Assembly: GCA_903870065.1 (NCBI GenBank) | Contig: CAIQBN010000397.1 | Span: 1-62,892 of the forward strand | Length of the DNA: 62,892 nucleotides | Origin: an uncultured beta proteobacterium | GTDB taxonomy: Bacteria > Pseudomonadota > Gammaproteobacteria > Burkholderiales > Burkholderiaceae_C | Reading direction: 5' to 3' | In this document: piece after piece, positions 2 through 62,890 of the stretch | Layout: each line of letters starts with the position of its first letter | Position numbering within the stretch: the stretch's first letter is position 1 | Notes under the pieces: model-generated | The model's input: the letters and a program-made list of their open reading frames with translations, nothing else | Databases searched by the model: none | Told to the model about the DNA's origin: nothing | Program-made: the position numbers and the translations under genes

Positions 2-1105
2 CTGGGCTTTCAGGCCAACCATGTGCCAATTCAGGCACCCCGTGCATTTGTTGAAAAGTACCGCGGCAAATACAAGGACGGCTGGGACGCCCTGCGCGAA
101 CAACGTCGCAAAAGCGCGGCAGCATTGGGCATCATTCCCGCCAACACACCGATGGTGCGGATGAGTACCACCAGCGACTGGAACGCGCTCAGCGAAAAAG
201 ACAAGCTCTACCAGCAGCGCCAGATGGAGATTTATGCCGCCATGGCCGATGCCATGGACCATGAAGTTGGCCGCTTCATTGCTCACCTCAAGTCCACCGG
301 CGAATACGACAACACGGTATTTGTGTTCTTGTCGGACAACGGTGCCGAGGGCAGTGATTACAAGGATGCGCAACCTTGGTTGTGGACGCAATATTCGCAG
401 GATATTGATCGAATTGGCGGCAAGGGTGGCTATGGAATTCCGGGGCCCAGTTGGGCCAGTGCATCGGTCTCGCCATTGACCGGTTATAAGTTTTACGCAG
501 CCGAAGGTGGCATCCGCGTGCCCATGCTGATTGCCGGTGTGGCGGGTGGGCGCAGCAACCACATTGCGCATGCGCTCACACATATCACCGACATTTCCCC
601 GACATTGCTGGAATTGGCCTCAGTTCCCTTGCCTGGAACCCAATACCACGGCCAGGCGATTGAACAAATCACTGGCAAGAGCCTGCTTCGGCTGGTCAGA
701 GGTGAAAGTCTGACCGTACGTACCCCGGATGAACCTCTGGGTTACGAGTTGTCGGGCAACCGAGCCTTGTTTAGGGGTGACCTCAAGCTCTCCAAAAATG
801 ACCCACCGGTGGGTGACGGGCAATGGCATTTGTATGACATCCAAAAAGACCCTGGCGAAACGCGCGACCTTCAGGGTGCGATGCCTCAGCAATTCGCATC
901 CATGCAGCAGGATTACCTGGTCTATGAAAAAACACATGGCGTCTTGCCGATGCCGGCGGGCTACAGTCCGACCGGCGCGGTGCTGATTAATGGCATTTAT
1001 AACTACTGGCTGCCAACCTACGGGCCAGCAGGCCTGGTTGTCTTCTGTTTACTTATTTCTACCATTTTGCTATTAAAACGGAAGCGCTCTGCGCATATTT
1101 CATGA
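2..1105 (+). CDS. Arylsulfatase/sulfatase family protein, 5'-truncated by the window edge, with a C-terminal membrane anchor
   Basis: Frame is open from base 2. It has sulfatase C-half motifs (NTVFVFLSDNG, K-x4-EGGIRVP, LYDIQKDPGETRDL) and a hydrophobic C-terminus followed by KRKR. Confidence 0.9.
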   Translation: MGFQANHVPIQAPRAFVEKYRGKYKDGWDALREQRRKSAAALGIIPANTPMVRMSTTSDWNALSEKDKLYQQRQMEIYAAMADAMDHEVGRFIAHLKSTGEYDNTVFVFLSDNGAEGSDYKDAQPWLWTQYSQDIDRIGGKGGYGIPGPSWASASVSPLTGYKFYAAEGGIRVPMLIAGVAGGRSNHIAHALTHITDISPTLLELASVPLPGTQYHGQAIEQITGKSLLRLVRGESLTVRTPDEPLGYELSGNRALFRGDLKLSKNDPPVGDGQWHLYDIQKDPGETRDLQGAMPQQFASMQQDYLVYEKTHGVLPMPAGYSPTGAVLINGIYNYWLPTYGPAGLVVFCLLISTILLLKRKRSAHIS

Positions 1106-1127
1106 GGGCTGTAGGCTATTTTCATTC
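1067..1127 (+). repeat. 61-bp dispersed element (family A), copy 1; spans the sulfatase stop and the next gene's start
   Basis: ttGCTattaaaacggaAGC gctctgcGCA tatttcatgagGGCTgtaggc tattttcattc; colinear with seven other copies. Confidence 0.8.
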
Positions 1128-2367
1128 ACCATGGCCGACTGAAGACGGTGGACCGCAGCGGCTGCAGATAGCCCTCTCCGGACGCGGTGCCATTGCGGGT
1201 TTGGCACTGCAAGCCGGTGAGCGGCTGCACTGCGTCACGCGCAACACGCTGATGTCGACCATGACCGTATTGGGGGCACCCGGTGAGGTTTACCTGATGC
1301 AGCACTCGGCCCTGCGCGCCCAGGTTGGCCTTGCCACCACTGCCTGTGTGGAGAAAATCGACCCCATCAGTCTGGAAACCATCGCACGCTCGCCGCGCCT
1401 GGCAGGCGGCCCCATGTGGCCCGGCGGCATGGCGGTGCACCGTAATGGTGAGCTCTATCTGGCCTATGGCCGCTATTTGCACCGCCTGAATCGCAACTGC
1501 CAGCCCATCGCCCAATTGCAGCTGCCCATCGCTGCGCCTTACAACTCATTTGTTGTTCTCGACAATGGCCTCATCGTCACCAAGAACCTGTCCGACGCCG
1601 TAGCCGCACGGCTAACCGTGGTCAACCCCGATACCGTCACGCGCGCCTGTGACGATGTCGATTGCCCCGAGCCTTCCATTGCGCGACTAAGCGCGATGGG
1701 CAACACGGTCTATGTGGTGGGGGTGCGTTCCATCTTTCGCTACCACTGGTCTGAGGCAAGAGGCGCATTGGAGTTCGATTCCACCTGGCGCTTTGACTAC
1801 GTTGGCAACACGACCCAGACCTACGGCTGGGATGTGGTGCTGGACGGGCAGCACGCCTGGTTCATGGACAACGGCAAGCACCGCTACCAGTTTCGGATGG
1901 TGGGTGCGGGAGTCAGTGCCACACCCAATCGGCTGATTCGCGTGTCACTCACCGATGCAGATGACCACCAAATTCTGGAGGTCTGCGGCGTGCGCGGCGG
2001 CAGCGTGACCAACCCGCCGGTCTTCGACCTGCAGCGCCAAATGGTAGTGGCCTACGACTCGGCCAATTGCCATTTGCGGGCATGGCGTTTTGACACTACC
2101 ACCCGCGCCTTGGAGCCGCTATGGCACAAGCAGGGTTTTGGGTGCGCCAGTCATATGGTGCTATACCCCGAAACCGGGGAACTGGTCACCAACGACTACC
2201 GTCAATTCGGCGAGGAAGTCGTGGTTCTGGATATTGAGACCGGTGCTGAGCGTGGCCGGGTGCGAACCGGTGGCATCATGCAAGGCGTTGTGTTTCCCAG
2301 CGTAGGCTGGGGGCGCGATGTGTACTGGAGCTCCATGGGACGCCTGGCTCGGGTGTTTGTCAATTGA
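1102..2367 (+). CDS. Hypothetical protein, probable beta-propeller
   Basis: 421-aa ORF with ATGA coupling to the sulfatase. Repeated beta-rich blades (e.g. NPPVFD...VVAYDS, VVVLDIETG). Confidence 0.7.
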   Translation: MRAVGYFHSPWPTEDGGPQRLQIALSGRGAIAGLALQAGERLHCVTRNTLMSTMTVLGAPGEVYLMQHSALRAQVGLATTACVEKIDPISLETIARSPRLAGGPMWPGGMAVHRNGELYLAYGRYLHRLNRNCQPIAQLQLPIAAPYNSFVVLDNGLIVTKNLSDAVAARLTVVNPDTVTRACDDVDCPEPSIARLSAMGNTVYVVGVRSIFRYHWSEARGALEFDSTWRFDYVGNTTQTYGWDVVLDGQHAWFMDNGKHRYQFRMVGAGVSATPNRLIRVSLTDADDHQILEVCGVRGGSVTNPPVFDLQRQMVVAYDSANCHLRAWRFDTTTRALEPLWHKQGFGCASHMVLYPETGELVTNDYRQFGEEVVVLDIETGAERGRVRTGGIMQGVVFPSVGWGRDVYWSSMGRLARVFVN

Positions 2368-2386
2368 TTGAAAGGAAACAGTCGCA

Positions 2387-3475
2387 ATGGCACGCAAGAC
2401 ACGATGGATTCTTGGCACGCTCATTGCAGCAGTGACGGCAACCCTGCTGGTACTGGCCTTTCAGCGACCCATCGCGACGGCACTGCTCGAGCAGATGGTC
2501 CACAAGAATGTCGGGCGCAACATCATCCCGGATCTGCCCGACGGACTGCACCTGGCCTTGTGCGGCACCGGCTCGCCCTTCCCCGACCCGACCCGCGCCG
2601 GGCCATGTTCGGCCATCATCGCCGGCGACCGGTTGTTCATCGTCGACACCGGTGAGGGCAGCGCACGTACCTTGGGCTACATGGGCATTCCGGCAGCCAA
2701 GATCGAAGCCATCTTTCTGACGCACTTTCACTCGGATCATATTGATGGCATCGGCCCGTTCCTCTTGCAGCGCTGGGGTGTTGGCACCTTCAAGACCCCC
2801 ACGCCGGTGTATGGTCCCTTGGGCGTAGAACAGGTCGTCGACGGATTTCGCGCGGCGTATGTACTGGACTTTGGCTACCGCGTGGCACACCACTCCCCCA
2901 AAATTATGCCGCCCGGCGGCAGTGGCGGCAAAGGAATACCATTCACCTTGCCCTCAACCGGGCAGGTAGACCATGTCGTGGTGATGGAAGACAAGGGCCT
3001 GAAAGTCACCGCATTTCGCGTCGACCACGCCCCGATTGACCCGGCGGTAGGTTATCGCTTTGACTACAAAGGACGCTCCATCGTGATCACCGGCGACACC
3101 AAAAAAACACCGTCAGTGCAAGCACTTGCCAGGAACGTCGACATATTGGTGCACGAAGCACTGCAACCCAAACTGGTCAAGCTCCTGGAAGCTGAATTTG
3201 CCAACCAACAGTTGAACAATATGTCGCAAGTCATGCGCGACATCCTGAACTACCACACCACGCCGGAAGAAGCAGCCGCCCAAGCGGCGGCAGCGGGTGC
3301 CAAAGAACTGGTGCTCAACCACATTGTTCCACCGCTACCCATTCGCTTTGCCTACCCGGCGTTCCTGGGAGATGCAGCCAAGTTTTATGACAAGCCCATC
3401 ACGGTGGGCGAAGACGGCATGCTGTTCAGCCTGCCTGCTAATTCCACTACCGTCGACCATAAAAGGCTCTACTAA
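2387..3475 (+). CDS. MBL-fold metallo-hydrolase (RNase Z/AtsA-like) with an N-terminal signal/TM
   Basis: Motifs CGTGSP, THFHSDH, ITGDT, LVHEA, YHTTP; AAGGA RBS upstream. Confidence 0.9.
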   Translation: MARKTRWILGTLIAAVTATLLVLAFQRPIATALLEQMVHKNVGRNIIPDLPDGLHLALCGTGSPFPDPTRAGPCSAIIAGDRLFIVDTGEGSARTLGYMGIPAAKIEAIFLTHFHSDHIDGIGPFLLQRWGVGTFKTPTPVYGPLGVEQVVDGFRAAYVLDFGYRVAHHSPKIMPPGGSGGKGIPFTLPSTGQVDHVVVMEDKGLKVTAFRVDHAPIDPAVGYRFDYKGRSIVITGDTKKTPSVQALARNVDILVHEALQPKLVKLLEAEFANQQLNNMSQVMRDILNYHTTPEEAAAQAAAAGAKELVLNHIVPPLPIRFAYPAFLGDAAKFYDKPITVGEDGMLFSLPANSTTVDHKRLY

Positions 3476-3477
3476 CC

Positions 3478-4350
3478 ATGCGTTCTCTCCAAGGTAAATC
3501 GGTTGTTATTACTGGCGCTGCTTCGGGCATTGGTGAGGCGCTGGCCCATGCCAGCGCAGTGCGCGGCGCACGGCTGCTTTTGGCCGATATCGATGCGCCG
3601 GGTCTAGAGCGGGTGGTCACGGCCATCCGATCAACCGGTGCCGAATGCTCTGGCCTGGTCACCGACACTGGCAATGAGGCGGCAATCCACGCTCTCGCGC
3701 AAGCCGCTCAGGACAGGCTCGGTGGGGCCGATGTCGTGGTCAACAACGCCGGTGTCGGCCTGTTGGCGCCAGTGGACAAACTGCGCACTGCGGATGCACA
3801 TTGGCTCATGAACATCAACTTCTGGGGCGTGGTGCATGGCTGCCAAGCCTTCATACCGCAATTGCGCCAGCGCAGCGACACCGTTCTGGTCAACATCTCC
3901 AGCATCTTCGCCATGGTGTCGATTCCCACGCAGAGCATTTACAACGCCAGCAAAGCGGCCGTGCGTGGTTTTAGCGACGCCCTGCGCGAAGAACTGCGGG
4001 GCTCGGGCGTGGATGTGCTGTGCGTACACCCCGGCGGCATCAAGACCAATATCGCCAACAGTGCGCGCATCACCGATGTGTCGATGGTGGCCGACTCCGA
4101 CCAGGACATGCGCAGCAACTTCGCCAAGCTGGCACGCACCACGTCGCAACAGGCTGCGGCAGTCATCATCGAAGCCATTGAAACACGAAAGACGCGTGTA
4201 CTCATTGGCGCGGACGCCAGGATCACGGACTGGTTATTTCGTTTATTCCCAGCCCAGGCTTCCCACTGGATCAGCAACTTGGGCCAGCGGATGCGCAAGC
4301 GCGCCCATGCCAAAGCGCAGGCAACACAAACCCTGGATAAAGCGGCATGA
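3478..4350 (+). CDS. Short-chain dehydrogenase/reductase
   Basis: Motifs TGAASGIG, NNAG, YNASK. Confidence 0.92.
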   Translation: MRSLQGKSVVITGAASGIGEALAHASAVRGARLLLADIDAPGLERVVTAIRSTGAECSGLVTDTGNEAAIHALAQAAQDRLGGADVVVNNAGVGLLAPVDKLRTADAHWLMNINFWGVVHGCQAFIPQLRQRSDTVLVNISSIFAMVSIPTQSIYNASKAAVRGFSDALREELRGSGVDVLCVHPGGIKTNIANSARITDVSMVADSDQDMRSNFAKLARTTSQQAAAVIIEAIETRKTRVLIGADARITDWLFRLFPAQASHWISNLGQRMRKRAHAKAQATQTLDKAA

Positions 4351-5273
4351 CCAAGCTACCCGTCATTGACAAAAAAAACGTGCTGCGCACACCCGACGCA
4401 CGCTTCGCCAACATCACCGACTTTCCCTACACGCCAAAATACCTGGAAGTGGGGGGCCTGCGCATCGCCTACCTTGATGAAGGCCCGCGCAATGCTGCGC
4501 AGGTTCTGCTGATGCATGGTGAACCTACCTGGTCTTACCTGTACCGCAAGATGATTCCGGGATTGCTGGCGGCAGGGCACCGCGTTATTGCCCCCGATCT
4601 GGTGGGCTTTGGTCGCTCGGACAAGCCCACTCAAAAAAATGCCTTCTCGTACGCCAACCATGTAGCCTGGATGGTCGCCTGGATGGAAACCGTGGATATT
4701 CAACATGCCACGCTGTTCTGTCAGGACTGGGGCTCGCTGATTGGGCTGCGCCTGGTGACCCACAGCCCGAATCGCTTTGATCGCGTCGTACTGGCCAACG
4801 GTGGCTTGCCGACCGGCGCGCAAGGGATCGTGCCCAAGGCATTCAAGATCTGGCGGGCATTTGCCCGTTTCAGCCCGTGGTTTCCGATTGGGCGCATTGT
4901 CAACTCGGGCTGCGCGCAGAAATTGAGCCCGCAAGAGACTTCCGCGTACGACGCACCCTTCCCTTCATCAAAGTATGCAGTGGCGGCCCGCCTGTTCCCC
5001 AGCTTTGTGCCCACCACGCCAACCGACCCGGAGCGTGCCGCCAATGAACAGGCATGGGAAGTTCTGAAGCAATGGCATAAACCTTTCCTGACCCTGTTCA
5101 GCAGCCGGGACCCGGTCACCCGTGGCGGCGACAAGATATTTCAAAAGCTGGTGCCCGGTGCGGCCAAGCAGCCCCACGCCACAACACGCGGAGCCGGCCA
5201 CTTTTTGCAGGAAGACAAGGGCCCGGAACTGGCAAAAACCATTGCGGATTTCATAGCATCAAGACCCGCCTAA
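4347..5273 (+). CDS. Haloalkane dehalogenase (alpha/beta hydrolase)
   Basis: LRTPDARF N-terminus, HGEPTWSYLYRKMI, nucleophile motif QDWG, catalytic GHFLQED. Confidence 0.9.
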   Translation: MTKLPVIDKKNVLRTPDARFANITDFPYTPKYLEVGGLRIAYLDEGPRNAAQVLLMHGEPTWSYLYRKMIPGLLAAGHRVIAPDLVGFGRSDKPTQKNAFSYANHVAWMVAWMETVDIQHATLFCQDWGSLIGLRLVTHSPNRFDRVVLANGGLPTGAQGIVPKAFKIWRAFARFSPWFPIGRIVNSGCAQKLSPQETSAYDAPFPSSKYAVAARLFPSFVPTTPTDPERAANEQAWEVLKQWHKPFLTLFSSRDPVTRGGDKIFQKLVPGAAKQPHATTRGAGHFLQEDKGPELAKTIADFIASRPA

Positions 5274-5306
5274 GCCACACGCAATTTCCACTCAGCCCAA
5301 AAAAAC

Positions 5307-5576
5307 ATGATTAGTTTTTTCAAAACACTTTGCCTGGCAACCTACGCACTGGCGCTGGCCGTACCTTTCATCACCCTGCCACTGGAGGCGGGCCCGTATG
5401 TGCAAAAGCTGGCCCTGATCTTGTTGGCCGCCCATATTCTGGAGTTGCCCATCGCCTACCGGTATCTCAGGCTGTACCAAGGCCCCCTCATCGACAGCGT
5501 GGCTTTGTCACTGCTGTATGGTTTGCTGCATTGGCGGCCTCTGGCAAAGACCAGCAAACAAAGCGCTGACCGTTGA
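5307..5576 (+). CDS. Small membrane protein (DUF1145-like)
   Basis: 89-aa hydrophobic ORF with AHxLE and LLYGLLHW motifs; lies within the operon. Confidence 0.65.
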   Translation: MISFFKTLCLATYALALAVPFITLPLEAGPYVQKLALILLAAHILELPIAYRYLRLYQGPLIDSVALSLLYGLLHWRPLAKTSKQSADR

Positions 5577-6750: not shown

Positions 6751-6758
6751 GACGCTTC

Positions 6759-7667: not shown

Positions 7668-7687
7668 CGCCAAAGAGCGAAAAGGCC

Positions 7688-25919: not shown

Positions 25920-25968
25920 TTTTGACGAATTGGAACATGGGCGCGTAACTTGCTCTATGCTAATCACC

Positions 25969-27555
25969 ATGAAGACAAAACCCCTGCAATTTTTGCGACG
26001 TGGCCAGGTCGTGACCCTGCCCGATGTCGATGTCAACCGCACTCTGTTGGAGGTTTTGCGGGAAGACCTGCATTGCACCGGCACCAAAGAGGGCTGCGGC
26101 GAAGGTGACTGTGGCGCCTGCACCGTCGTGGTTGCAGAGCCCCAGGATGGGCAGTTGAAATACAGCGCAATCAACAGCTGCATCCGTCTGGCGCACTCGA
26201 TTGATGGCATGGCCGTGTGGACTGTAGAAGATATTGCCCCCACGCTTGCCACTGCGTGTGCTGCGCTGCCCCCCGAGGGGGCCCAACCCGCCTTGGGGCG
26301 ACCCGGCGGCGGTTTGATTGCCCCCACGCTTGCCACTGCGGAATTAGCAGCACCGCTGCATCCTGTTCAGCAAGCTATGGTGGACAGCCATGCGTCGCAA
26401 TGCGGCTTTTGCACTCCCGGTTTTGTGATGAGTCTGTTTGGCCTCTACCAGAATAAAACTGCGCGGTCCGAGCCCATAAGCCGGGAACAGGCGCAAGCTG
26501 CTTTGTCCGGGAATCTGTGTCGGTGCACCGGCTACCGCCCAATTTTGGATGCTGCCCAAGCAATGCAAGGCCTACCGCCAGTGCTGGTCAACGAAACCGA
26601 ATTGCTATCACAATTAGAGCGGCTAGCGCATATTCCACGAGGGCTAGAGCCTGATTTGGCTTACATTTCTCCCAAAACGCTGCCCGAGTTGCTGTCCGCA
26701 CGAAGCCGCTATCCGCAGGCCCAATTGGTGGCGGGCTGCACCGACGTAGGTCTTTGGGTGACCAAGCTGCACCAGCAGTTCGAACGTGTGCTCGATGTGA
26801 CCCGGGTCGCAGAATTGCGCCGCATCGAAGACTACCCCCATCACATTGCTATTGGCGCTGCCGCTACATTGACCGACGCATTTGCAGCGCTGGTGGCCGA
26901 TCGGCCCGCGCTGACCGAATTTGCCCACCGCTTTGCCGGCTTGCCCGTGCGCAACAGCGCAACGCTGGGCGGCAACGTAGCCAATGGGTCACCCATCGGC
27001 GACTCCATGCCATTGTTGATTGCGCTGGGGGCCAGTGTGGTGCTGATGCGCCAAAACGGATCATCAATTGCCCACCGCGAACTGGGTCTGGAAGATCTTT
27101 ACACCGGCTACCGGACCAACGTGATGGCGGCCGATGAAGTGCTGGCCTGGATCAAAGTGCCCAAAGCGACCGCCGCTGAAGTCTGCCGTGCCTACAAGGT
27201 TTCCAAACGGTTCGAAGATGACATTTCAGCTGTCTGCCTCGCAATCGGGCTACGAATCGACAAGGGTGTCGTTTCGGCCGCCTCGATTGGCGCCGGTGGT
27301 GTTGCGGCAACACCGTCACGTGCGCACAAAACGCAGGCGGCCTTGCTGGGACAGGCCTGGAACCAGGCCACGGTGGACCACGCAATCCAGGTACTGCGCA
27401 GTGAATTCACCCCGATTTCCGACATGCGTGCCAGCGCGGCCTATCGCAACGAGGTGCTGGGTAATCTGCTACAGCGTTTCTGGCTTGAAACCCAGGGGCA
27501 GGTTGTGACCAACGTGCGCAGCGTGTCGGCCACCCACGTGGGCGGAGGAAATTGA
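25969..27555 (+). CDS. xdhA: Xanthine dehydrogenase small subunit (2Fe-2S/FAD) with two repeat-derived segments
   Basis: Motifs GCGEGDCGAC, QCGFCTPG, GNLCRCTGY, GGNVANGSPIGD, KVSKRFEDDIS. Confidence 0.95.
   Translation: MKTKPLQFLRRGQVVTLPDVDVNRTLLEVLREDLHCTGTKEGCGEGDCGACTVVVAEPQDGQLKYSAINSCIRLAHSIDGMAVWTVEDIAPTLATACAALPPEGAQPALGRPGGGLIAPTLATAELAAPLHPVQQAMVDSHASQCGFCTPGFVMSLFGLYQNKTARSEPISREQAQAALSGNLCRCTGYRPILDAAQAMQGLPPVLVNETELLSQLERLAHIPRGLEPDLAYISPKTLPELLSARSRYPQAQLVAGCTDVGLWVTKLHQQFERVLDVTRVAELRRIEDYPHHIAIGAAATLTDAFAALVADRPALTEFAHRFAGLPVRNSATLGGNVANGSPIGDSMPLLIALGASVVLMRQNGSSIAHRELGLEDLYTGYRTNVMAADEVLAWIKVPKATAAEVCRAYKVSKRFEDDISAVCLAIGLRIDKGVVSAASIGAGGVAATPSRAHKTQAALLGQAWNQATVDHAIQVLRSEFTPISDMRASAAYRNEVLGNLLQRFWLETQGQVVTNVRSVSATHVGGGN
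26233..26340 (+). repeat. Family B GC-rich palindromic element in frame in xdhA, with a 24-bp direct repeat
   Basis: attgcccccacgcttgccactgcg occurs at 26233-26256 and 26317-26340 (84-bp period). Hairpins gcccccc-gagg-gggc and ccgcc-N15-ggcgg lie between. Confidence 0.85.
26602..26662 (+). repeat. 61-bp element family A, copy 2 (xdhA Fe-S/FAD linker)
   Basis: ttGCTatcacaattagAGC ggctagcGCA tattccacgagGGCTagagcc tgatttggctt. Confidence 0.88.
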
Positions 27556-27557
27556 GC

Positions 27558-29888
27558 ATGCAGACTCCCACCCCGAAGCAGAACACTGCCAGCGCCTGCG
27601 GTACTTCACACCCCCACGAGAGTGCCGCTGCCCAGGTGACGGGCTCAGTGGCCTATATTGACGACCTGCCCGAAGTGCGCGGTACCCTGCACGCTGCGCC
27701 CATCCTTTCAACCGTGGCACACGGGCGGCTGCTCGGCGTGAACGTGGCTCCCGCGCTGGCCATGCCGGGCGTGGTGGACGTGGTGCTGGCTTGCGACATT
27801 CCCGGAGACCCGATGTTGGCGGCCTTCGCCGGGGATGAGCCCGTGTTTGCGACCGACACGGTGCAATTCATTGGGCAGGTTGTGGGTGTGGTGCTGGCGA
27901 CAAGCGTGGCTCAGGCACGCCGTGCAGCGCGCAAAGTGGCACTCAACATTGAAGCCTTGCCTGCCATCCTAACCGTGGCGCAGGCACTCGGGTCCAAGAG
28001 CTACGTGTTGCCTCCTGTGTTTGTGCGCCGGGGAGACGCGCAGACCGCGCTGAAATCTTCCCCACATACCCTGAGCGGCTCGCTGGAAGTGGGCGGCCAG
28101 GAACACTTTTACCTGGAGGGTCAGATCGCCTACGCACTGCCCCAGGAACAAAACCAATGGCTGGTTTACAGCAGCACGCAGCATCCTGGAGAGGTCCAGC
28201 ACTGGGTGGCGCACGCGCTGGGCCTGCACCAGCATGCCGTTCGCGTAGAGTGCCGACGCATGGGGGGCGGTTTTGGCGGCAAGGAGACCCAGGCCGGCCA
28301 CTTGGCGGTGTGGGCGGCAGTGGCCGCACACAAATCGGGGCGCGCAGTGAAACTGCGCCTGGACCGCGATGACGACTTTATGGTGACCGGCAAGCGCCAC
28401 CCTTTCTCCTATGAATACACCGCCGGCTTTGACGACACCGGGCGCTTGACAGCACTCAAATTGATGATGGCGGCGAACTGCGGTTTCAGCGCAGATCTAT
28501 CTGGCCCCGTAGCGGACCGCGCCATCTTCCATAGCGACAATGCATACTACTTGCAGGATGTAGAAATTGCATCCTACCGCTGCAAGACCCACACCCAGAG
28601 TCACACGGCATTCCGGGGTTTTGGTGGACCGCAAGGCGTGATCGTGATCGAAGCCATCATGGGCGATATTGCCCGCGCACTGCAGCGCGACCCGCTTGAT
28701 GTGCGTTTACGCAACCTGTACAGCGACGAGGCAGTCGGAGGCGATGGACAACGGCGCGATACAACCCATTACGGTATGCCGGTGGAGGACAACATCCTGC
28801 TCCCATTGCTATTGGAATTAGAGCAATCATCGCAGTACCGACGAGGGCGAGAGGCAGTTTTGGCTTGGAACGCAGGCAATCCGGTGATCAAGCGCGGGCT
28901 GGCCATCACGCCCGTCAAGTTTGGCATCAGTTTCACTGCCACACTGTTCAACCAGGCGGGCGCGTTGGTGCACGTCTATACCGATGGCAGCGTTCAGGTC
29001 AACCACGGTGGCACCGAGATGGGGCAGGGTCTGCACACCAAAGTGGCACAAATTGTCGCTGACGAACTCGGCATTGCGTTCGATCGGGTACTGTGCACCG
29101 CCAGCGACACCAGCAAAATTCCCAATGCATCTGCCACCGCCGCGTCGGCAGGCACCGACCTCAATGGTCGCGCCGCCCAATTTGCGGCACGGCATGTGCG
29201 TGACAACCTGGCGGCTTTTGTGTGCGGACTCGATGGATGCGGCGCAGGTGCAATTCGTTTTGTAGCCGGCAAGGTGATTTCCCCTAGCAAAACGCGTGAA
29301 TTCACCGAGGTGGTGAGCATGGCCTACGCCAATCGAATCCAGCTGTGGAGCGACGGCTTCTACCGCACGCCCAAAATTCACTATGACAAAACAACGCTGA
29401 CGGGCCGTCCGTTTTACTACTTCGCCTACGGCGCCGCCTGCACCGAAGTTGCCATTGACACGCTGACCGGTGAGAGTCGGGTCTTGAAGGTGGATATCCT
29501 GCACGATGTCGGGCGCAGCATCAATCCGGCCATCGACGTCGGGCAAATTGAAGGCGCATTTGTGCAGGGGATGGGCTGGCTAACAACCGAACAACTGGTC
29601 TGGAACGACAAGGGCCATCTCAGTACCCATGCGCCGAGCACCTACAAAATTCCGACGGCCGGCGACGTGCCAGACACTTTCAATGTCAACCTGTGGCATC
29701 AGCCCAACCCGCAAGACAACGTATTTGGCTCCAAGGCCGTGGGTGAGCCGCCTTTCATGTTGGCCATTAGCGTTTTCGAAGCGTTGCGCGATGCCATTGC
29801 GTCCGTTGGCAGTGGTGGTCCGGTGCCACTCAACGCCCCGGCAACTGCAGAAAACGTGCTGGCTGCCGTGCAGCGCCTGCGCAACTGA
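27558..29888 (+). CDS. xdhB: Xanthine dehydrogenase molybdopterin-binding subunit
   Basis: Motifs GQEHFYLEG, GGGFGGKE, FRGFGGPQ, GGTEMGQG, SKAVGEPP; GGAGG RBS. Confidence 0.96.
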   Translation: MQTPTPKQNTASACGTSHPHESAAAQVTGSVAYIDDLPEVRGTLHAAPILSTVAHGRLLGVNVAPALAMPGVVDVVLACDIPGDPMLAAFAGDEPVFATDTVQFIGQVVGVVLATSVAQARRAARKVALNIEALPAILTVAQALGSKSYVLPPVFVRRGDAQTALKSSPHTLSGSLEVGGQEHFYLEGQIAYALPQEQNQWLVYSSTQHPGEVQHWVAHALGLHQHAVRVECRRMGGGFGGKETQAGHLAVWAAVAAHKSGRAVKLRLDRDDDFMVTGKRHPFSYEYTAGFDDTGRLTALKLMMAANCGFSADLSGPVADRAIFHSDNAYYLQDVEIASYRCKTHTQSHTAFRGFGGPQGVIVIEAIMGDIARALQRDPLDVRLRNLYSDEAVGGDGQRRDTTHYGMPVEDNILLPLLLELEQSSQYRRGREAVLAWNAGNPVIKRGLAITPVKFGISFTATLFNQAGALVHVYTDGSVQVNHGGTEMGQGLHTKVAQIVADELGIAFDRVLCTASDTSKIPNASATAASAGTDLNGRAAQFAARHVRDNLAAFVCGLDGCGAGAIRFVAGKVISPSKTREFTEVVSMAYANRIQLWSDGFYRTPKIHYDKTTLTGRPFYYFAYGAACTEVAIDTLTGESRVLKVDILHDVGRSINPAIDVGQIEGAFVQGMGWLTTEQLVWNDKGHLSTHAPSTYKIPTAGDVPDTFNVNLWHQPNPQDNVFGSKAVGEPPFMLAISVFEALRDAIASVGSGGPVPLNAPATAENVLAAVQRLRN
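28806..28866 (+). repeat. 61-bp element family A, copy 3 (inside the xdhB core)
   Basis: ttGCTattggaattagAGC aatcatcGCA gtaccgacgagGGCgagaggc agttttggctt; includes a run of AT-rich codons (ttg cta ttg gaa tta). Confidence 0.75.
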
Positions 29889-40436: not shown

Positions 40437-40497
40437 TGGACATTTTGGCCTTTAGCCCTGGTATTTACTGCATGAAATGCTACTCTAAAGATAGCAA
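40437..40497 (-). repeat. 61-bp element family A, copy 4 (intergenic)
   Basis: Minus strand: ttGCTatctttagagtAGC atttcatGCA gtaaataccagGGCTaaaggc caaaatgtcca. Confidence 0.85.
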
Positions 40498-40515: not shown

Positions 40516-44543
<4,028 letters not shown>

Positions 44544-44562
<19 letters not shown>

Positions 44563-44604
44563 CTCTTAAGAAATATCCCTGAAACGCTATCAAATCAGCA
44601 GCAT
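44544..44604 (-). repeat. 61-bp element family A, copy 5 (contains the kinase stop codon)
   Basis: Minus strand: atGCTgctgatttgatAGC gtttcagGGA tatttcttaagAGCTaccgac tcaaatggtca. Confidence 0.72.
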
Positions 44605-49396: not shown

Positions 49397-50632
49397 TCAA
49401 TTTGTCGCTGCGCCGCTTTCAAACCAGATCTTGATCAATGCCCGTTCGGGCTCGGTGATGGCGGTTGCGTTGTTCATTGGCATCACGCGACTCACCACCG
49501 ATTGCTGATAGATAGCCTGCGCATGCTGTTTCACCCCTTGCGGCGAATCCAGTCGCACACTCTTCATCTGCACCTGTGCGCCGTGGCACAAATAACAGCG
49601 CTGTTCCAATACTGCCTGTATCGTCTTATAGGAAATTGAACCGGTAGCCCCCGATTCAATTGCTTGCGTAGCTCCTGATTTTGTAGCGGTCGCGGCAGGC
49701 ACAGGGTCCGGACTTAGCCACACAACGGTGGCACCAATGAGCGTCAGACCAGTCAGCGCATAGCGCCAGGGGTGGCGGTTGCGTCCGAGCTTGAAGCCAT
49801 GGCGCAACACAAAGAATTGCCGGATCGCAGCGCCAGCAAACATCATCAGCACCAAAACCAACCAGTTTTGCGGGTGCGAGTAGGTAAAACTATAGTGGCC
49901 ACTGAGCATGGCGAACAACACCGGAAGCGTGAAATAGGTGTTGTGGACGCTGCGCTGCTTTCCACGCTGACCATGGATCGGGTCAACAGGTCGGCCAGCC
50001 TGGATGTCGGCCACCACAGTTCGTTGGCCAGGAATGATCCAAAAAAACACATTGGCACTCATGCTGGTCGCGATCATCGCGCCCACCAACAAAAAGGCAG
50101 CACGTCCGGCAAACCAGTGGCAGGCCAGCCAGGAGGCCAGTGCCACCAACAGGAGCACCAAGGCTCCCACAATGGCGTCGCCACCTTTGCGCTGACCAAA
50201 ATAGCGGCATATACCGTCGTAGGCAAGCCAAAACACCGCCAGAAATGCCAATGCGGTCGCAATAGCTGCAGAGGCAGACCAGTCCATGACGGACTTGTCA
50301 ATTAGGTAGGTCCCCGCGCTCCACAAATAGGACACCGTAAACAGCGAGAAACCGCTCAGCCACGTGCTGTAACTTTCCCAGTAGAACCAATGCAGATGGG
50401 CGGGCAACTGGGGCGGCGCGCCGAGAAACTTGACCGGGTGGTAGAAGCCACCACCGTGCACGGCCCACAGTTCTCCGCTAACCCCCTGGCGTTTGAGATC
50501 CTCGTCAACCGGTGGCGTCAGACTGCTGTCCAGAAACACAAAATAGAAGGATGAACCCACCCAGGCAATCGCCGTAATGACGTGAACCCAGCGCAACAGC
50601 AAATTGGCCCAGTCCAGCAAATAACTTTCCAT
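49397..50632 (-). CDS. puuD: Membrane urate hydroxylase with a C-terminal cytochrome c
   Basis: Motifs RWVHVI, LWAVHGGGFY, RSVHNTYFTLP, and heme motif CYLCH. Confidence 0.9.
   Translation of the reverse strand: MESYLLDWANLLLRWVHVITAIAWVGSSFYFVFLDSSLTPPVDEDLKRQGVSGELWAVHGGGFYHPVKFLGAPPQLPAHLHWFYWESYSTWLSGFSLFTVSYLWSAGTYLIDKSVMDWSASAAIATALAFLAVFWLAYDGICRYFGQRKGGDAIVGALVLLLVALASWLACHWFAGRAAFLLVGAMIATSMSANVFFWIIPGQRTVVADIQAGRPVDPIHGQRGKQRSVHNTYFTLPVLFAMLSGHYSFTYSHPQNWLVLVLMMFAGAAIRQFFVLRHGFKLGRNRHPWRYALTGLTLIGATVVWLSPDPVPAATATKSGATQAIESGATGSISYKTIQAVLEQRCYLCHGAQVQMKSVRLDSPQGVKQHAQAIYQQSVVSRVMPMNNATAITEPERALIKIWFESGAATN
49629..49689 (-). repeat. 61-bp element family A, copy 6 (puuD TM/cytochrome c linker)
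   Basis: Minus strand: ccGCTacaaaatcaggAGC tacgcaaGCA attgaatcgggGGCTaccggt tcaatttccta. Confidence 0.8.
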
Positions 50633-55106: not shown

Positions 55107-55112
55107 ACCGGC

Positions 55113-55658: not shown

Positions 55659-55662
55659 ATGC

Positions 55663-56409: not shown

Positions 56410-57629
56410 CGCCCCATTCGGTAGCACTGTTTGACGCACGGCCCTTCTTTGAAAAGGCCCTGATTTATGGCGTGCAGCATGGAATTCTGGACCGGACCCG
56501 GCTGAACGCCATTTGCGCCGATGCGCCCAAGGGCATGGTGCAGATTGCCCGCTACTTTGGCACTGAATTTCTACGGCCCGAGCTGGAAAAGGCGCGCGAT
56601 CGGATGGTCAACCTGGTCAGCCTGTACCTGGAACACAGCTGCGATGGCGACCTCCAACGTGCAGCAGAGTCGCTACGTGACAACTCCTTTTTATCGCGTT
56701 CCAAGGGCGGCTCGGACATGCTCAAAGCACTGATTGCCATGCCACAAAACAGCCATTTCGGCATGCACGACGTAACCGGTTTTACGGATGAGCATATTCC
56801 CCTGCTGGCCAAGTGGTCGCTTCGGACCCTGAGTGAGTACCAAGCGGAACTGAGCCTGCGGCGCCAGGCAGGCCTGCTGGTTGACGGCGCATTGTGGTTT
56901 GCACGGGAACTGGGCGAAGACCTTTCGGATCTTCAGGCCGCCGGCAAAGACGCGGAAGCAGTGATCCGCACCGGACTGCTGGCCCTGTCCAATCGACGCA
57001 AAGACATGCCCGATTGGCCAGGCTTTGAAAAAATGATACAAGGTCTGCGCAAAAAACACGCGGGCCAGTCGCCAACCTCCTCCGACGCACCCACACTTGC
57101 GCTGCCGAAGAACTTGCCCGAAACATTAAAACCCACGGTGGAATGGGTGCGCGAATCCGTGATTTCGGATATGCCAAAAATTTTGGATGCCCAATTGCCC
57201 ATCCGAAAGCTGTTTGATCGGACACCCGCTTTCATTGGACGCTATTTTTGGCTGGAAGACGCTCTGGCGGAAATCGACCACTTTGAGCGCGCCACCTCGC
57301 TGGCATGGGACAAGGCAACCGGCGGGCACAGCGATGACAGTTCCCTTTTAACGCTCTTTCTCTGCCTCGCAACCGGTTCAAAGCCGAAAACACTTCTCAC
57401 TGACAAGGCCGCCAGGGGCATCGTGCGCAAGGTCCAAAAAGCCGGACTCCAGCCGGAACTGGCAAGCCATTTCATTCATAGCCATGCACCGCACCATATT
57501 CAGGCAGACTATGCACGATTGTGGGAATCGTTTGTCGAACAGGCCGCACCTGTACTTGCCAGCGACTTTGACGGTGCCCTCAATGACGCCATGACACTGT
57601 TACGCAATGAGTGCAATATCAGCCAATAA
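56406..57629 (+). CDS. atcC: Helical protein, positional AtcC
   Basis: Fourth gene, TTGA overlap, 407 aa; assigned by synteny. Confidence 0.6.
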   Translation: MTPHSVALFDARPFFEKALIYGVQHGILDRTRLNAICADAPKGMVQIARYFGTEFLRPELEKARDRMVNLVSLYLEHSCDGDLQRAAESLRDNSFLSRSKGGSDMLKALIAMPQNSHFGMHDVTGFTDEHIPLLAKWSLRTLSEYQAELSLRRQAGLLVDGALWFARELGEDLSDLQAAGKDAEAVIRTGLLALSNRRKDMPDWPGFEKMIQGLRKKHAGQSPTSSDAPTLALPKNLPETLKPTVEWVRESVISDMPKILDAQLPIRKLFDRTPAFIGRYFWLEDALAEIDHFERATSLAWDKATGGHSDDSSLLTLFLCLATGSKPKTLLTDKAARGIVRKVQKAGLQPELASHFIHSHAPHHIQADYARLWESFVEQAAPVLASDFDGALNDAMTLLRNECNISQ

Positions 57630-57720
57630 TCCACCAATAGTCCGCTTGAATGGCCACCGGTTTGCGGCCCTGCTGTGAATCCGCTACAGTGCCACCAGAT
57701 ACATTTATAGAGAACACCCA

Positions 57721-57939
57721 GTGAACACCAAGCCGAACGAGACGGCCCCCCAGCCCGAGCCTGAGCACGACCGGTACATGCCCGGAGATCCCATTCCGGT
57801 GCCCCATGCAGTGGAAGCCAATACCGAGTCAACCTGGGCCCTGTTTTCCGATGTGCAACGCCAGGATGAGCCTGATTTTGAAGACACGGTTCCCGCATCA
57901 AGTCTGGAAGAAATGGCCATTGGCAAACCCACGCGCTAA
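57721..57939 (+). CDS. Small acidic hypothetical protein
   Basis: 72-aa ORF filling the gap on the operon strand. Confidence 0.5.
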   Translation: MNTKPNETAPQPEPEHDRYMPGDPIPVPHAVEANTESTWALFSDVQRQDEPDFEDTVPASSLEEMAIGKPTR

Positions 57940-58013
57940 GCGGGCCTAGCGGCCATTCGCCCCCGATTCCCTGCCCTTTACCCAAAAATTCCCAAAACTT
58001 TCCAAGAATTTCC

Positions 58014-58598
58014 ATGCATTCCAGCCGACTGCTATTAGCGATTATTTGCCTGATCACGCTCATCCTGAGTGCTTGCTCCAATCAGGATTCGTCCAACAAG
58101 GGTAGTGCAGCCACCAAACGTGAGGTATCCGTTCAGACTGTTGCGACCGAAGCAAAAGGGTTTACGGTGGGCGCGCTGATGAGTGCGCACACGGTGTATG
58201 TTTTCTTTGACCCGCAGTGCCCGCATTGTGGGCACTTGTGGCAGGCTTCAACACCGCTGCACAAAAAAGCCAAATTTGTCTGGATTCCGGTGGCCTGGAT
58301 CAATGCGTCGAGTTTGTCACAGGGCGCTGCCCTGCTCAGCGCCACAGACCCATTGGCGCTGATGGGCGAACACGAAACCTCCTTGCTGGCAGGCAAAGGT
58401 GGAATTGCCGCTTCGGCCAGCATACCGGCCGATGTGGAGCAGACCATCAAGGCCAACACCAAACTACTCAGCAGTTTCGGTGCCGAGTCAGTCCCGTTTG
58501 TGGTGGTTAAAAATGCCACCACCGGTCAAACGATTGGGCGTGATGGTGCATTGTCAACCGCCACGCTGGCGGCGCTAATAGGGTTTGAGCCTTCTTGA
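58014..58598 (+). CDS. DsbG/DsbC-like thioredoxin-fold lipoprotein
   Basis: Lipobox LSAC, FDPQCPHC, cis-Pro loop SVP. Confidence 0.85.
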   Translation: MHSSRLLLAIICLITLILSACSNQDSSNKGSAATKREVSVQTVATEAKGFTVGALMSAHTVYVFFDPQCPHCGHLWQASTPLHKKAKFVWIPVAWINASSLSQGAALLSATDPLALMGEHETSLLAGKGGIAASASIPADVEQTIKANTKLLSSFGAESVPFVVVKNATTGQTIGRDGALSTATLAALIGFEPS

Positions 58599-58622
58599 GC
58601 GCCGTGGCTTAGCCCGCCGGTC

Positions 58623-59243
58623 CTACATCTTGGCGGCTAACGCTTTTTCAATCGCTGCAACCAGATTGGTGTTGTTAGGCTCCACGTTGCTGGTATAGCT
58701 GGCAGACACCTTTCCACTACGGTCAATCAAGAACTTGTGAAAGTTCCACTTGGGTTCGCTGCGGGTCGCCTTGTACAGTTCGGCATACAGCGCATTGCGC
58801 TCATCGCCCTTGACGTCCGACTTGGCAAACATGGGAAACTTCACGCCATAGGTGTTAAAACAGAAATCGGCTATTTCCTTGGATGAGCCCGGCTCCTGCT
58901 TGCCAAACTGGTTAGAAGGAAAACCCAAAACAACCAATCCCTTGCCCTGGTACTTGGCATGCAGTGCCTCCAGCCCCTCGTACTGGCTGGTAAAGCCACA
59001 ATAACTGGCCGTATTAACCACCAGCAGCACCTTGCCTGCGTACTGGCACAGGTTTTGAGGCGCATCGTCCTGCAAACGGGCAAAGTCGTGCTGCAGGATT
59101 GCCGGGCAGGCGCTAGCAGCGGTTGCACCTGCGGGCTTGGCTGCTGGAACTGAACCGCTTGCCTGGGCCATTGCGGCGGAACTGCAAAACAGGACCAGCG
59201 CACCGGTAAACAGGGCATGCGAAAGAGGGGTTTGGTGTTTCAT
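58623..59243 (-). CDS. Glutathione peroxidase family protein, exported
   Basis: Motifs VNTASYCGFT, GFPSNQFG, WNFHKFLI. Confidence 0.93.
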   Translation of the reverse strand: MKHQTPLSHALFTGALVLFCSSAAMAQASGSVPAAKPAGATAASACPAILQHDFARLQDDAPQNLCQYAGKVLLVVNTASYCGFTSQYEGLEALHAKYQGKGLVVLGFPSNQFGKQEPGSSKEIADFCFNTYGVKFPMFAKSDVKGDERNALYAELYKATRSEPKWNFHKFLIDRSGKVSASYTSNVEPNNTNLVAAIEKALAAKM

Positions 59244-59272
59244 GCAACCATTATGGTCGCGCTGCAAAGCCC

Positions 59273-62200
59273 CTACCCCACCCAGCGTCTTGCGTTGTGC
59301 CAGAGCTGCATCCAAGGACTGGGCTCGTTGGCGTCCAGGCCATTCCAGCTCATCTGAACATTGCGAAACACGCGCTCGGGGTGCGGCATCATGGCGGTGA
59401 AGCGGCCGTCTGCCGTGGTGACCGCCGTCAAGCCACCCGGACTGCCATTGGGGTTGAACGGGTAGGCCTCCGTGGCCACCCCGGTGTTATCGGTGAAACG
59501 CATCGCGGCGATGGCCTTGCCGGCATTGCCGCGGTACTTGAAATTGGCAAAACCCTCGCCGTGTGCCACAGCAATCGGCAGTCGCATGCCGGACAGGTCC
59601 TTGAAGAACAGGGAGGGCGAATCCAGCACCTCCACCATCGAAAGGCGCGCCTCGAAGCGCTCGCTCTGGTTGGTGGTGAACCGCGGCCAGTCCTGCGCGC
59701 CAGGAATGATGTCGGCCAGTTCGGCAAACATTTGGCAACCGTTGCAAACGCCAAGGCCGAAAGTGTCGGAGCGGCCGAAAAAGGCCCTGAACTGATCCGA
59801 CAGCGCCGGATTGAAGGTAATGGAGCGGGCCCATCCAATGCCGGCGCCCAGCGTGTCGCCATAGCTGAAGCCGCCACAAGCCACCACGCCCTGGAAGTCT
59901 GCCAGTTTGGCGCGCCTCGTCTGCAGGTCCGTCATGTGCACGTCAAAGGCATCAATGCCGGCTTCAGTGAAGGCGTAGGCCATTTCCACGTGTGAGTTGA
60001 CACCTTGCTCGCGCAAAACGGCGACACGGGGGCGGCTGGTCAGAACTGCAGGCGCTACGTTTTTTGTAGCTGCCTTGGTATATTTCACGAGGGCTAGCGC
60101 CTGATTTGGCATATAGACATGCAAACCGGGGTCGCTCCCTGCACCGGCTGCTGCGTGTTCGGCGTCCGCACATGCCGGGTTATCGCGCTGTTGTGCGATC
60201 TTCCAGCTTACGGCGTCCCATACCTGGTGCAGATCAGGCAAACGTGCCTTGAAGATGGCCTTGGCGTCGCGCCAGATCTGCAATTCGCCTTTGCCAGCGT
60301 CGATTTCAGACGACTCAGGGCGGGTCTTGCCAATAAAGTGGCTAAAGGCTGAGAGGCCATGCTCGCGCAAAGTCTGCATTACCTCGCTGCGCTGCGCCGT
60401 GCGCACCTGCAAAATCACACCCAGTTCTTCGTTGAACAGTGCCTTGAGTGTCAGTTCTTCCCGGCGGGCCCCCACCTGCCCTGCCCAGTTCTTGCTGTCG
60501 CCCACATCCATGCGGCTGTCCGTTATGCCATCGCCCTCGGTCACCAGCATGTCCACATTCAGTGACACGCCAACGCGCCCGGCAAATGCCATCTCGGTCA
60601 CCGTGGCCAGCAGGCCACCATCGCTTCGGTCGTGGTAGGCCAAAATTTTGCCCTGCACACGCAGTGCATTCACCGCGTTGACCAGGTTCACCAGGTCTTG
60701 GGCGTGGTCCAGATCGGGCACCGTATCGCCAACCTGGCCCAGCGTTTGCGCCAGGATGCTGGAGGCCATGCGGTTTTTGCCGTGTCCCAGATCAACCAGC
60801 ACCAAAGTGGTGTCCTCGGATGCATTCAATTGGGGCGTGAGTGTGCCGCGCACATCGGCCAGCGTGGCAAAGGCGCTAACGATCAGCGACACCGGGGAGG
60901 TCACTTTTTTGGCCGCACCAGCGGATGAAGACGCGCTTTGCGGCTCGGTCCAATGCGTTCGCATCGACAGCGAATCCTTACCGACGGGTATGGACACCCC
61001 CAGCGCCGGACACAACTCCATACCCACGGCCTTGACCGTGGCGTATAGCGCGGCGTCCTCGCCTGGTTCCCCGCAAGCTGCCATCCAGTTGGCCGACAGC
61101 TTGACGCGGGGAAGTTCGATCGGAGCCGCCAGCAAATTGGTAATGGCCTCGGCCACGGCCATGCGCCCGGATGCGGGTCCATCCAGTGCAGCCAGGGGCG
61201 TGCGCTCACCCATGGACATGGCTTCACCGGCAAAACCCTTGAAGTCAGCCAGCGTGACGGCGCAATCCGCCACGGGCACCTGCCAGGGGCCGACCATCTG
61301 GTCGCGGTGCGTCAGGCCACCCACGGAACGGTCGCCAATGGTGATCAGGAAGCGTTTGGACGCCACCGTAGGATGCGCCAGTACGTCGATGACGGCCTTT
61401 TGCAGATCCACACCGGTCAGGTCCAGCGGCTTGAACTGGCGTGCAACCGTTTTGACGTCGCGGTGCATTTTGGGCGGCTTGCCCAAGAGCACATTCATCG
61501 GCATGTTGACTGGTGCCCCCGCGGCTTGGGACGGCCCGGCGCCGCTCACGCCGTCGTTTTCATACACCACCAGCTCTCGTTCTTCGGTCGCCACGCCGAT
61601 GACGGCAAAGGGGCAACGCTCACGGTCACACAAGGCCTTGAATTGCTCCAATGATTCAGGTGCAATGGCCAGCACATAGCGCTCCTGGCTCTCGTTGCAC
61701 CAGATCTCCTTGGGAGCCATGCCGGACTCTTCAAGCTTGACAGCACGCAAATCGAATCGCGCACCGCGTCCAGCATCGTTGGTCAACTCCGGGAAAGCGT
61801 TCGACAGACCACCCGCACCCACGTCGTGAATGGCCAAAATCGGGTTCTCGCGCCCCTGAATCCAGCACTGGTTAATGACCTCTTGCGTCCGGCGCTCGAT
61901 TTCGGGGTTACCGCGCTGCACCGAGTCAAAATCCAGGTGCGCCGCGTTGGCGCCGGTGGCCATGGAGCTTGCGGCACTGCCACCCATGCCAATGCGCATG
62001 CCGGGGCCACCGAGCTGGATCAGCAGGCTGCCCGCTGGAAATTCGATCTTGTGGGTCTGCGTGGAGTCGATCACGCCCAGCCCCCCCGCAATCATGATCG
62101 GCTTGTGGTAGCCGCGCTGCACGGTGTCCACGTCGCTGGCCACGCTTTGCTCGTACTCGCGAAAGTAGCCCAGCAGGTTGGGCCGGCCAAATTCGTTGTT

Positions 62201-62890
62201 GAAGGCGGCGCCGCCCAGTGGGCCCTCAAGCATGATTTGCAGCGGGCTGGCGATGTGCTCGGGCTTGCCAAAATCACCGCCCCAGAGTTTAGAGACGGTA
62301 AAGCCGGTCAACCCCGCTTTGGGTTTGGAGCCACGCCCTGTGGCGCCTTCATCACGGATCTCACCACCCGCGCCAGTGGAGGCACCGGGAAATGGTGAAA
62401 TGGCCGTAGGGTGGTTATGGGTTTCCACCTTCATCAAAATGTGATTGGTTTCGCTACTTTTTTGATAGCTAGCCGCGCATATTTCACGAGGGCTAGAGGC
62501 TGATTTTGCTACAAACCGCTCCACCAGACCGCCTTCCATGACCGAGGCGTTATCAGAGTACGCCACCAGCATGTGCTGCGGATGGGTCTGGTGCGTGTGG
62601 CGAATCATGCTAAACATGCTTTGTTCCTGCGCCACGCCGTCGATGGTGAACTGGGCGTTGAAGATCTTGTGGCGGCAATGCTCGCTGTTGGCCTGGGCAA
62701 ACATCATCAGCTCCACGTCGGTGGGGTTGCGCCCCAGCGTGGTAAAGGCGTTGACCAGGTAGTCAATTTCGTCTGCTGCCAAAGCCAGACCCCAGTCCTT
62801 GTTGGCCGCGTCGAGCGCGCCCTTGCCGCCACCCAGCACATCCACATGGTCCATCGGCGCCGCCTGCAACGCACTGAAAAGTCCAAGCGC
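59273..62890 (-). CDS. purL: Phosphoribosylformylglycinamidine synthase (large type), 5' end outside the window
   Basis: Motifs [40 protein letters not shown]. Confidence 0.98.
60052..60112 (+). repeat. 61-bp element family A, copy 7 (antisense in the purL synthetase/glutaminase linker)
   Basis: gcGCTacgttttttgtAGC tgccttgGTA tatttcacgagGGCTagcgcc tgatttggcat. Confidence 0.88.
61521..61545 (+). repeat. Family B hairpin remnant, antisense in purL
   Basis: gcggc-ttgggacggcccggc-gccgc matches xdhA ccgcc-ttggggcgacccggc-ggcgg. Confidence 0.65.
62451..62511 (+). repeat. 61-bp element family A, copy 8 (antisense in purL)
   Basis: tcGCTacttttttgatAGC tagccgcGCA tatttcacgagGGCTagaggc tgattttgcta. 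Confidence 0.9.

Follow-up and report, generated by a model that had tools for sequence, protein, structure and literature searches.

Dispersed, specific DNA sites, many of them coding and without a regulatory role, are described for SlmA and for MatP with its matS sites in Escherichia coli, where proteins of transcription factor families recognize them (PMC3116907). SlmA and matS sites are 12–13 bp long, number 23–50 copies, and are tied to macrodomains. The DNA uptake sequences (DUS) and uptake signal sequences (USS) of Neisseriaceae and Pasteurellaceae arise in place, reshape proteins, show frame bias, occur in both orientations, and diverge into lineage dialects. Rickettsia palindromic elements and miniature inverted-repeat transposable elements (MITEs) add or supply ~20 codons within conserved proteins. 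Repetitive extragenic palindromes (REPs) and bacterial interspersed mosaic elements (BIMEs), with their REP-associated tyrosine transposases (RAYTs), reach hundreds of copies biased toward gene 3′ ends and convergent gaps, and BIME-2 is a gyrase site (PMC6379681). Operators of HxlR/DUF24 regulators such as HypR and YodB are inverted repeats, and the known members control few local genes through a redox cysteine. Here, we describe an element that shares some features with each of these systems. It occurs eight times in the 62,892-nucleotide contig CAIQBN010000397.1 of an uncultured beta proteobacterium (GCA_903870065.1; the whole contig is hereafter the window) and hundreds of times in the source genome. 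Its left half, box A, is the predicted binding site of a small HxlR-type protein. The element appears to work like SlmA and MatP sites and to evolve like uptake sequences, and it departs from every family named above in a defining property.

The source genome, G000, is a 5.45-Mb assembly in which our own simple gene caller located 5318 genes. A profile was seeded with the eight window copies and then iterated over the whole assembly. All eight copies reported by the original prediction are confirmed and align with one another without gaps. Its coordinates are right, with minus-strand copies quoted by their low-end coordinate, as are the peptides it quoted for in-gene copies. A recount returns its invariants (GCT-N11-AGC in 8/8, GCA in 6/8, GGC in 7/8), and the next T is present in 7/8. 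Leave-one-out profile scores of the window copies are 21.5–62.7 bits, and the genome-trained profile at an 8-bit threshold finds precisely these eight copies in the window:

1067..1127, + strand: element copy at the 3′ end of a sulfatase open reading frame (ORF; 23-1105) and the start of the next ORF (1102-); box A at 1069-1085; 55.5 bits
26602..26662, + strand: element copy in the XdhA linker (ORF 25930-27555); box A at 26604-26620; 65.1 bits
28806..28866, + strand: element copy in XdhB (ORF 27552-29888); box A at 28808-28824; 46.6 bits
40437..40497, - strand: intergenic element copy upstream of a hybrid histidine kinase (ORF 40516-44562); box A at 40479-40495; 47.4 bits
44544..44604, - strand: element copy at the histidine kinase 3′ end, in a convergent gap; box A at 44586-44602; 31.8 bits
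49629..49689, - strand: element copy in a urate-oxidase-N (puuD-like) ORF (49397-50632); box A at 49671-49687; 37.1 bits
60052..60112, + strand: element copy antisense in purL; box A at 60054-60070; 56.1 bits
62451..62511, + strand: element copy antisense in purL; box A at 62453-62469; 68.2 bits

Across G000, 551 copies score ≥18 bits with the profile and 542 score ≥20 bits, compared to 0 in the reversed genome; the hundreds of copies per genome that had been projected from the window are present. Profile matches within genes number 246, compared to 8–25 in six codon-preserving shuffles, so the frequency comparison that the original prediction had proposed is passed. The copies fall inside genes (209/551), over a gene end (125), or between genes (217, with ~37 expected). 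The earlier description of the element as lying mostly in genes holds for the window (5/8) but not for the genome. The purL sites were compared across nine element-rich genomes, a term that at the family level stands for Comamonadaceae genomes with at least 40 strict palindromes. Synonymous identity is 0.84 at informative columns versus 0.62 in filler and 0.61 in flanks, and the GC content at third codon positions is 0.42 versus 0.79 in flanks. Together, the shuffles and this synonymous conservation uphold the earlier claim that the constraint acts on the nucleic acid and not on the peptide.

Box A occupies element positions 3–19 and is a 17-bp palindrome, GCTAY-N7-RTAGC, with an A/T filler. 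The right arm occupies positions 21–66, with GCA at 27–29, ACGAGGGCTA at 36–45, and A/T tracts near 32, 54, and 64. A length of 61 bp had been given; the signal is longer, running from about -2 to +66 (~68 bp). The A/T dinucleotide period across the element is 10.8 bp. Spacing between the halves is rigid (offset 0 accounts for 484 pairs, and no pair has another offset within ±25 bp), as expected from the bipartite, strictly spaced site proposed originally. The finer proposal of two 17-bp boxes on a 24-bp pitch needs correction: in G000 the strongest part of the right half is ACGAGGGCTA, and where the second box is symmetric its center lies 23 bp from that of box A. The element holds ~50 bits of information, compared to the 14 needed to pick 551 sites.

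Box A is common to the family, and the right arm, with its second box (box B), is lineage-specific. In G144 and G067, box B is symmetric, a perfect inverted repeat of the form CGCTT-N7-AAGCG, and Polaromonas and G079 carry further, different versions. The XdhA-linker position of the 26602 copy is occupied in many Rhodoferax, Polaromonas, and Acidovorax orthologues, with a different right-arm version in each; the nearest named relative of the window XdhA is from a Rhodoferax metagenome-assembled genome (78% identity), which suggests that the source is a Rhodoferax-like member of the Comamonadaceae. The outer half of box A is often relaxed in G067, where box B is nearly always accompanied by the inner half of box A. 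About 60 bare box-A sites are listed in G000, some of them intergenic, and none of the 14 right-only G000 sites lies upstream of a regulator as a bare right-arm site. In G207, two box-A palindromes (C1:232381-232415 and 908092-908126) have the start of box B on both sides; 0 G000 copies are so built. No complementary covariation is found among the 551 G000 copies, and seven of the eight window copies fold no better than z = -1.7, in agreement with the weak hairpin potential noted earlier. The weak folding, the lack of covariation within the genome, and the fixed spacing indicate that the element is likely a double-stranded DNA site.

G000 has a single HxlR-type gene of the relevant subfamily, located beyond the window at G000:C275:13183-13491 on the minus strand between dnaG-rpoD and FKBP-grpE-dnaK-dnaJ, and no second HxlR paralogue. 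Its 103-amino-acid product has an isoelectric point of 9.8 and 0 Cys and is assigned to HxlR by Pfam and Atlas; a single-sequence structure model shows a winged helix (predicted local distance difference test score 67). Box A alone lies ≤300 bp upstream of 46/49 orthologues (background, 0.024 per 300 bp), and a -10-like hexamer follows it by 14–16 bp in 40/49 loci. Five paralogous HxlR-type genes (in G301, G178, G118, G263, and G177) each have a tandem pair of box-A sites upstream, and two element-poor genomes have their few palindromes flanking such a gene. The element thus shares with HxlR/DUF24 operators an inverted repeat with A/T filler upstream of the regulator's own gene, and HypR is reported to bind a similar inverted repeat, GTATCAAAATTGATAC (PMC3351151). 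It differs from the known operators in that its box is coupled to a 45-bp arm genome-wide. The protein also lacks the conserved N-terminal redox cysteine of DUF24 regulators, among which Cys14 is described as conserved (PMC3351151). A ComFB-family gene (L078:2049-2330, on G000:C275) is divergent from the HxlR-type gene and has the box-A region in common with it in 23/46 compared loci.

The strict palindrome occurs at least 40 times in 70/250 family genomes, a count that underestimates lineages with a relaxed outer half-box, so that some genomes classed as element-poor may be misclassed. Within the genus, the long exact pattern occurs at least 13 times in 17/36 genomes, the element-rich ones at that level, and 0–4 times in the other 19. 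Of 147 genomes from other families in the order, 145 lack any match, and the remaining two contain one or two. The HxlR-type orthologue is present in 69/70 element-rich family genomes, and 145/146 family genomes that lack it have ≤12 palindromes; these genomes are kin, and the counts overstate the independence of the co-occurrence. At the genus level, the orthologue is found in 16/17 element-rich and 5/19 element-poor genomes. The sole element-rich exception in the genus, G022, also lacks grpE, and its HxlR locus is probably unassembled. In the element-less G024 and G028, the orthologue is cleanly missing from intact synteny. A search of 72,556 plasmid records returned one distant HxlR-type gene. 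Because box A lies upstream of 46/49 orthologues and the gene is present in 69/70 element-rich genomes, the HxlR-type protein is the predicted binder; the LysR-type reading of the T-N11-A box, suggested originally, is not supported, although no search for LysR co-occurrence was made. The protein looks necessary but not sufficient for the element, which suggests that another factor serves the right arm.

The placement of the copies relative to genes bears on what such a protein pair might do. Copies per kb are highest in convergent gaps (1.31), intermediate in tandem gaps (0.77), and lowest in divergent gaps (0.27). They cluster 0–60 bp beyond stop codons, with no preferred orientation there (151 vs 148), and sites are found at 6% of gene ends in the lowest codon-adaptation quartile, climbing to 23% in the highest. 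This convergent, 3′-end placement matches sites at which positive supercoils build up. The right arm (~45 bp, period 10.8 bp) is close in length and period to the ~47-bp arms with a 10.75-bp period reported for the gyrase motif (PMC6379681), a resemblance that any bent or wrapped site would share. From this placement, together with the likeness to gyrase-motif wrapping arms, we infer a role in topology.

Our proposal is that the element is a double-stranded docking site for two proteins serving chromosome topology or architecture, a function and a binding mode that are predicted and to which we give an even chance. Among the candidates of the original prediction, nucleoid organization is still the strongest, as a putative role. 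Box A would very probably be an operator at which an HxlR-type dimer binds and represses its own promoter. A second protein would probably read the helically phased right arm cooperatively. The pair would likely bend DNA and manage chromosome torsion or architecture. With even odds, the complex would mark places of transcription-generated positive supercoiling, where it might load a topoisomerase or position SMC, and would not control its neighbors. More tentatively, a transcription factor operator may have been recruited to form a hard-wired grid of sites across the genome at which gyrase or another chromosome motor is loaded. Such a grid would be important enough to overwrite ~20 codons in core enzymes and phage genes, and its second half would evolve lineage dialects together with its reader; no description of such a loading grid was found in print. 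As with SlmA and MatP, the protein would come from a transcription factor family and have dispersed, partly coding, nonregulatory sites. The element differs from those sites in its ~68-bp length, bipartite build, hundreds of copies, and HxlR-type fold of the predicted protein. It also differs in distribution: on the complete chromosomes G010 (65 of 70 places listed) and G067 (first 100 of 131), the listed places show no macrodomain-sized gap or strand polarity, with both strands interleaved and a largest gap of ~270 kb. A dif-like pattern for placing the terminus matched in 0/5 genomes, and replichore position is judged here without origin or terminus.

How new sites arise was examined in coding copies. 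Copies are nearly as divergent from one another as column-shuffled ones (median nearest neighbor 17 vs 19 mismatches of 61). The 10 copy pairs that differ at ≤7 positions all have a flank in common and therefore represent duplicated loci, not recent transposition. The XdhB copy at 28806 is gap-free across the site relative to element-less Ramlibacter and Hydrogenophaga orthologues and to chain B of the Rhodobacter structure PDB 1JRO. A length test used 1.6 of 3.83 Mb of one element-less outgroup, in which 33/209 coding copies fell in matched genes and 29 were scorable. Relative to the outgroup, the sites range from -7 to +19 amino acids: 13 are within ±3, nine add 4–10, five add 16–19, and two are shorter. 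In control windows, 90% are within 3 amino acids and 0.3% differ by ≥15. The gatB- and alr-like coding copies keep ~50% identity to the element-less outgroup. In purL, the loop at the 60052 copy is 8–13 amino acids longer than in element-less relatives, and the length at the 62451 copy equals that in several of them; G012 has a decayed yet recognizable copy at the same place as the latter. Some sites overwrote existing codons, and others came with loop growth indistinguishable here from insertion. New sites would rather probably arise mainly via substitutions and small length changes at tolerant positions, be kept by selection, and decay once the partner is lost.

A plain MITE was considered and rejected, as there is no target duplication, no terminal repeat, and no recent near-identical copy in an unrelated flank. 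The variable length change likewise does not fit insertion of a fixed length, given the 13/29 copies within ±3 amino acids and the gap-free XdhB site. The target-duplication search yielded at best 6/544 in 2688 tests, and terminal covariation is not above noise. The analogy with Rickettsia palindromic elements drawn in the original prediction fails for the noninsertion copies. The element differs from those elements and from MITEs in lacking terminal repeats and target duplications, in its variable length change, and in its many noninsertion copies. Separately, the purL sites in G020, G023, G029, and G014 (L055, L050, L073, and L060) have 21–24 bp extra at the element tail, and in G020 and G023 an old tail was apparently left beside the new one.

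Several observations weigh against the docking-site proposal. Enrichment at 3′ ends and in genes of high codon adaptation could alternatively reflect weak constraint and native DNA, not torsion. Fourteen of the 29 scorable coding copies lie in loops longer than in the outgroup, five of them by 16–19 amino acids, and look insertion-like. A fold search with the HxlR-type model returned no match at E ≤ 0.001; its best, nonsignificant matches include YodB. A sigma-70 scanner called no promoter ahead of the G000 gene. The orthologue also occurs in 35 family genomes with <40 palindromes, it was not found in G079, which has 43, and the HxlR-type gene may be partly a clade marker. Finally, 48 box-B copies pooled across many lineages show complementary covariation at three pairs (z 3.7–4.3). 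That covariation fits a symmetric shift in dimer specificity and also fits a hairpin.

A selfish, REP-like repeat could account for some of these points. In this explanation, which we consider unlikely, a domesticated Y1 (RAYT-like) transposase or other enzyme spread the repeat by inserting or overwriting, and the HxlR operator was co-opted. In some lineages (G067, G144), the element has RTAG followed by an imperfect stem, as in GTAG-REPs (PMC8266576), and a copy lies at the 3′ end of a single-copy Y1 gene in 25/28 element-rich compared to ~2/21 element-poor loci, as judged by eye. The five coding copies that add 16–19 amino acids, the REP-like convergent-gap enrichment, and the box-B covariation across lineages also favor it. 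However, the Y1 gene is present in 221/250 family and 32/36 genus genomes irrespective of the element, the Y1 protein is only ~50% identical in four element-rich genomes (G001, G004, G010, and G027), and the Y1-adjacent copy is, by eye, no nearer the consensus. The stem is broken in the G000, Polaromonas, and G079 versions, gap-free copies retain conserved residues, and the absence of target duplication and the flanks shared by all close pairs also argue against transposition. The element shares with REPs and BIMEs the hundreds of copies, the bias to 3′ ends and convergent gaps, a copy beside a Y1 gene, and, in some lineages only, a GTAG-like tetranucleotide preceding a palindrome. REPs and BIMEs differ from the element in being extragenic and arranged as doublets or arrays, whereas 38% of G000 copies are in genes and close pairs are under-represented; the element's hairpin is not conserved, recent copies are absent, and the Y1 gene does not track it. 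A recombinase, one of the candidates raised originally, has no positive support, as the Y1 transposase is present with or without the element. The Y1 protein scores 75.4 against NF047646, under the cutoff of 80. The gene itself (L293-L341; G000:C416:4975-5658 and orthologues) has a conserved pair of short repeats downstream, and the conserved tyrosine is replaced in G018, G009, and G024.

A very large transcription regulon, or a roadblock-termination network, of the HxlR-type protein and a co-regulator is improbable. The protein belongs to a regulator family and has a site suited to autoregulation, some bare box-A sites are intergenic, and copies cluster just after stop codons. Against this, copies are sparsest in the divergent gaps that would hold promoters, their orientation is random, and some are located within purL, xdhAB, and phage terminase genes. 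A 2017 study by Tong et al. (PMC5217627) raised this objection too, on the basis of convergent placement, and the cysteine-free protein is unlike the redox-sensing DUF24 regulators.

Comparably improbable is a DNA uptake signal like DUS or USS, built by biased uptake and recombination with lineage dialects; its HxlR operator would then be a coincidence or serve a second purpose. The evolutionary signature is shared: noninsertion origin, frame bias, both orientations, even spacing, and scarcity in foreign DNA, as reported for uptake sequences (PMC2817400), with origin in place seen for part of the copies only. Gaps of <300 bp between copies number 4, compared to 16 expected, and copy density increases with contig GC content, low-GC contigs being poor in copies. 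Selective uptake is also reported for a family member, Verminephrobacter eiseniae, although the available part of that source names no signal (PMC4212676). However, the predicted binder is of the winged helix-turn-helix transcription factor type and not a pilin, and the sole V. eiseniae motif pair in the table of Tong et al. is unrelated (PMC5217627). ComEC, the only competence family examined, is present in 76/80 genomes whether or not they carry the element, and no match to it was found in the element-rich genomes G034 (99% complete) and G027, leaving the uptake-signal candidate raised originally without positive support. Relative to DUS and USS, the element is much longer, contains a regulator operator, and is about tenfold sparser, at ~0.1 per kb compared to 0.8–0.9 (PMC2817400). 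An RNA or single-stranded structural element, such as a terminator or stability hairpin, is already largely refuted and very improbable, since copies show no orientation bias to transcription, no within-genome covariation, and no Rfam match at gathering score in the window (one chance match, E 0.43), even though some genera have a perfect inverted repeat as box B and a single window copy gives a good fold (z = -3.5).

Fragments of the element have been reported before. Tong et al. list potential novel motifs GCTTAT-N5-AAGCG in Acidovorax ebreus and ATAGCT-N22-CAAAAG in Polaromonas naphthalenivorans, without a protein or function (PMC5217627). Both are fragments of the present element, and many of the 140 Rhodoferax ferrireducens pairs in that study are probably fragments as well. 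In the available part of that source, the motifs are not joined into one element, linked to a protein, or examined in coding sequence (PMC5217627). VeiPR1 of V. eiseniae is mentioned in a review (PMC3975124). No description of the whole element or of its HxlR link was found in the literature within reach, which excluded subscription journals and the VeiPR1 thesis. The full anatomy and the HxlR link appear to be new; what was already known is the uncharacterized fragments of 2017 (PMC5217627).

The element also extends to mobile DNA. In IMG/VR, 62 loci match it, scattered over unrelated phage genes, and no recurring recombinase that could serve as a phage-borne cognate enzyme was found in the 87 ORFs near these loci. 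Protein types that recur in this set, at the element or next to it, are terminase large subunits (7), DNA methyltransferases (4), and very large proteins, some DarB-like (4). In G000 (contigs C200:1-190, C201 end, and C331 end), two different element copies are broken at the identical base within box A by a group II intron-like 5′ end, and a contig with an intron-like 3′ end runs on into the half of a box A that is missing. The element thus appears to serve as the target of a group II intron. Three phage-like reverse-transcriptase loci (L126-L128, on G000 C44, C45, and C286), one with an RT-15 RNA match, are possibly diversity-generating retroelements. Several G000 loci are doubled on different contigs at 90–99% identity, which suggests a strain mixture or recent duplication in the bin.

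Acidovorax, Polaromonas, and Rhodoferax belong to a large environmental family in which this element is among the most abundant repeats lacking an explanation, and these results supply a named candidate protein and a defined site for it. Some 200 G000 proteins carry peptide stretches dictated by a DNA site and offer a test case for a DNA-level function that reshapes a proteome. The HxlR-type gene is small, single-copy, and lost in some relatives, which makes it a straightforward experimental target. If the topology role is true, bacteria can hard-wire sites of torsion relief, which was not seen for downstream regions in an E. coli study.

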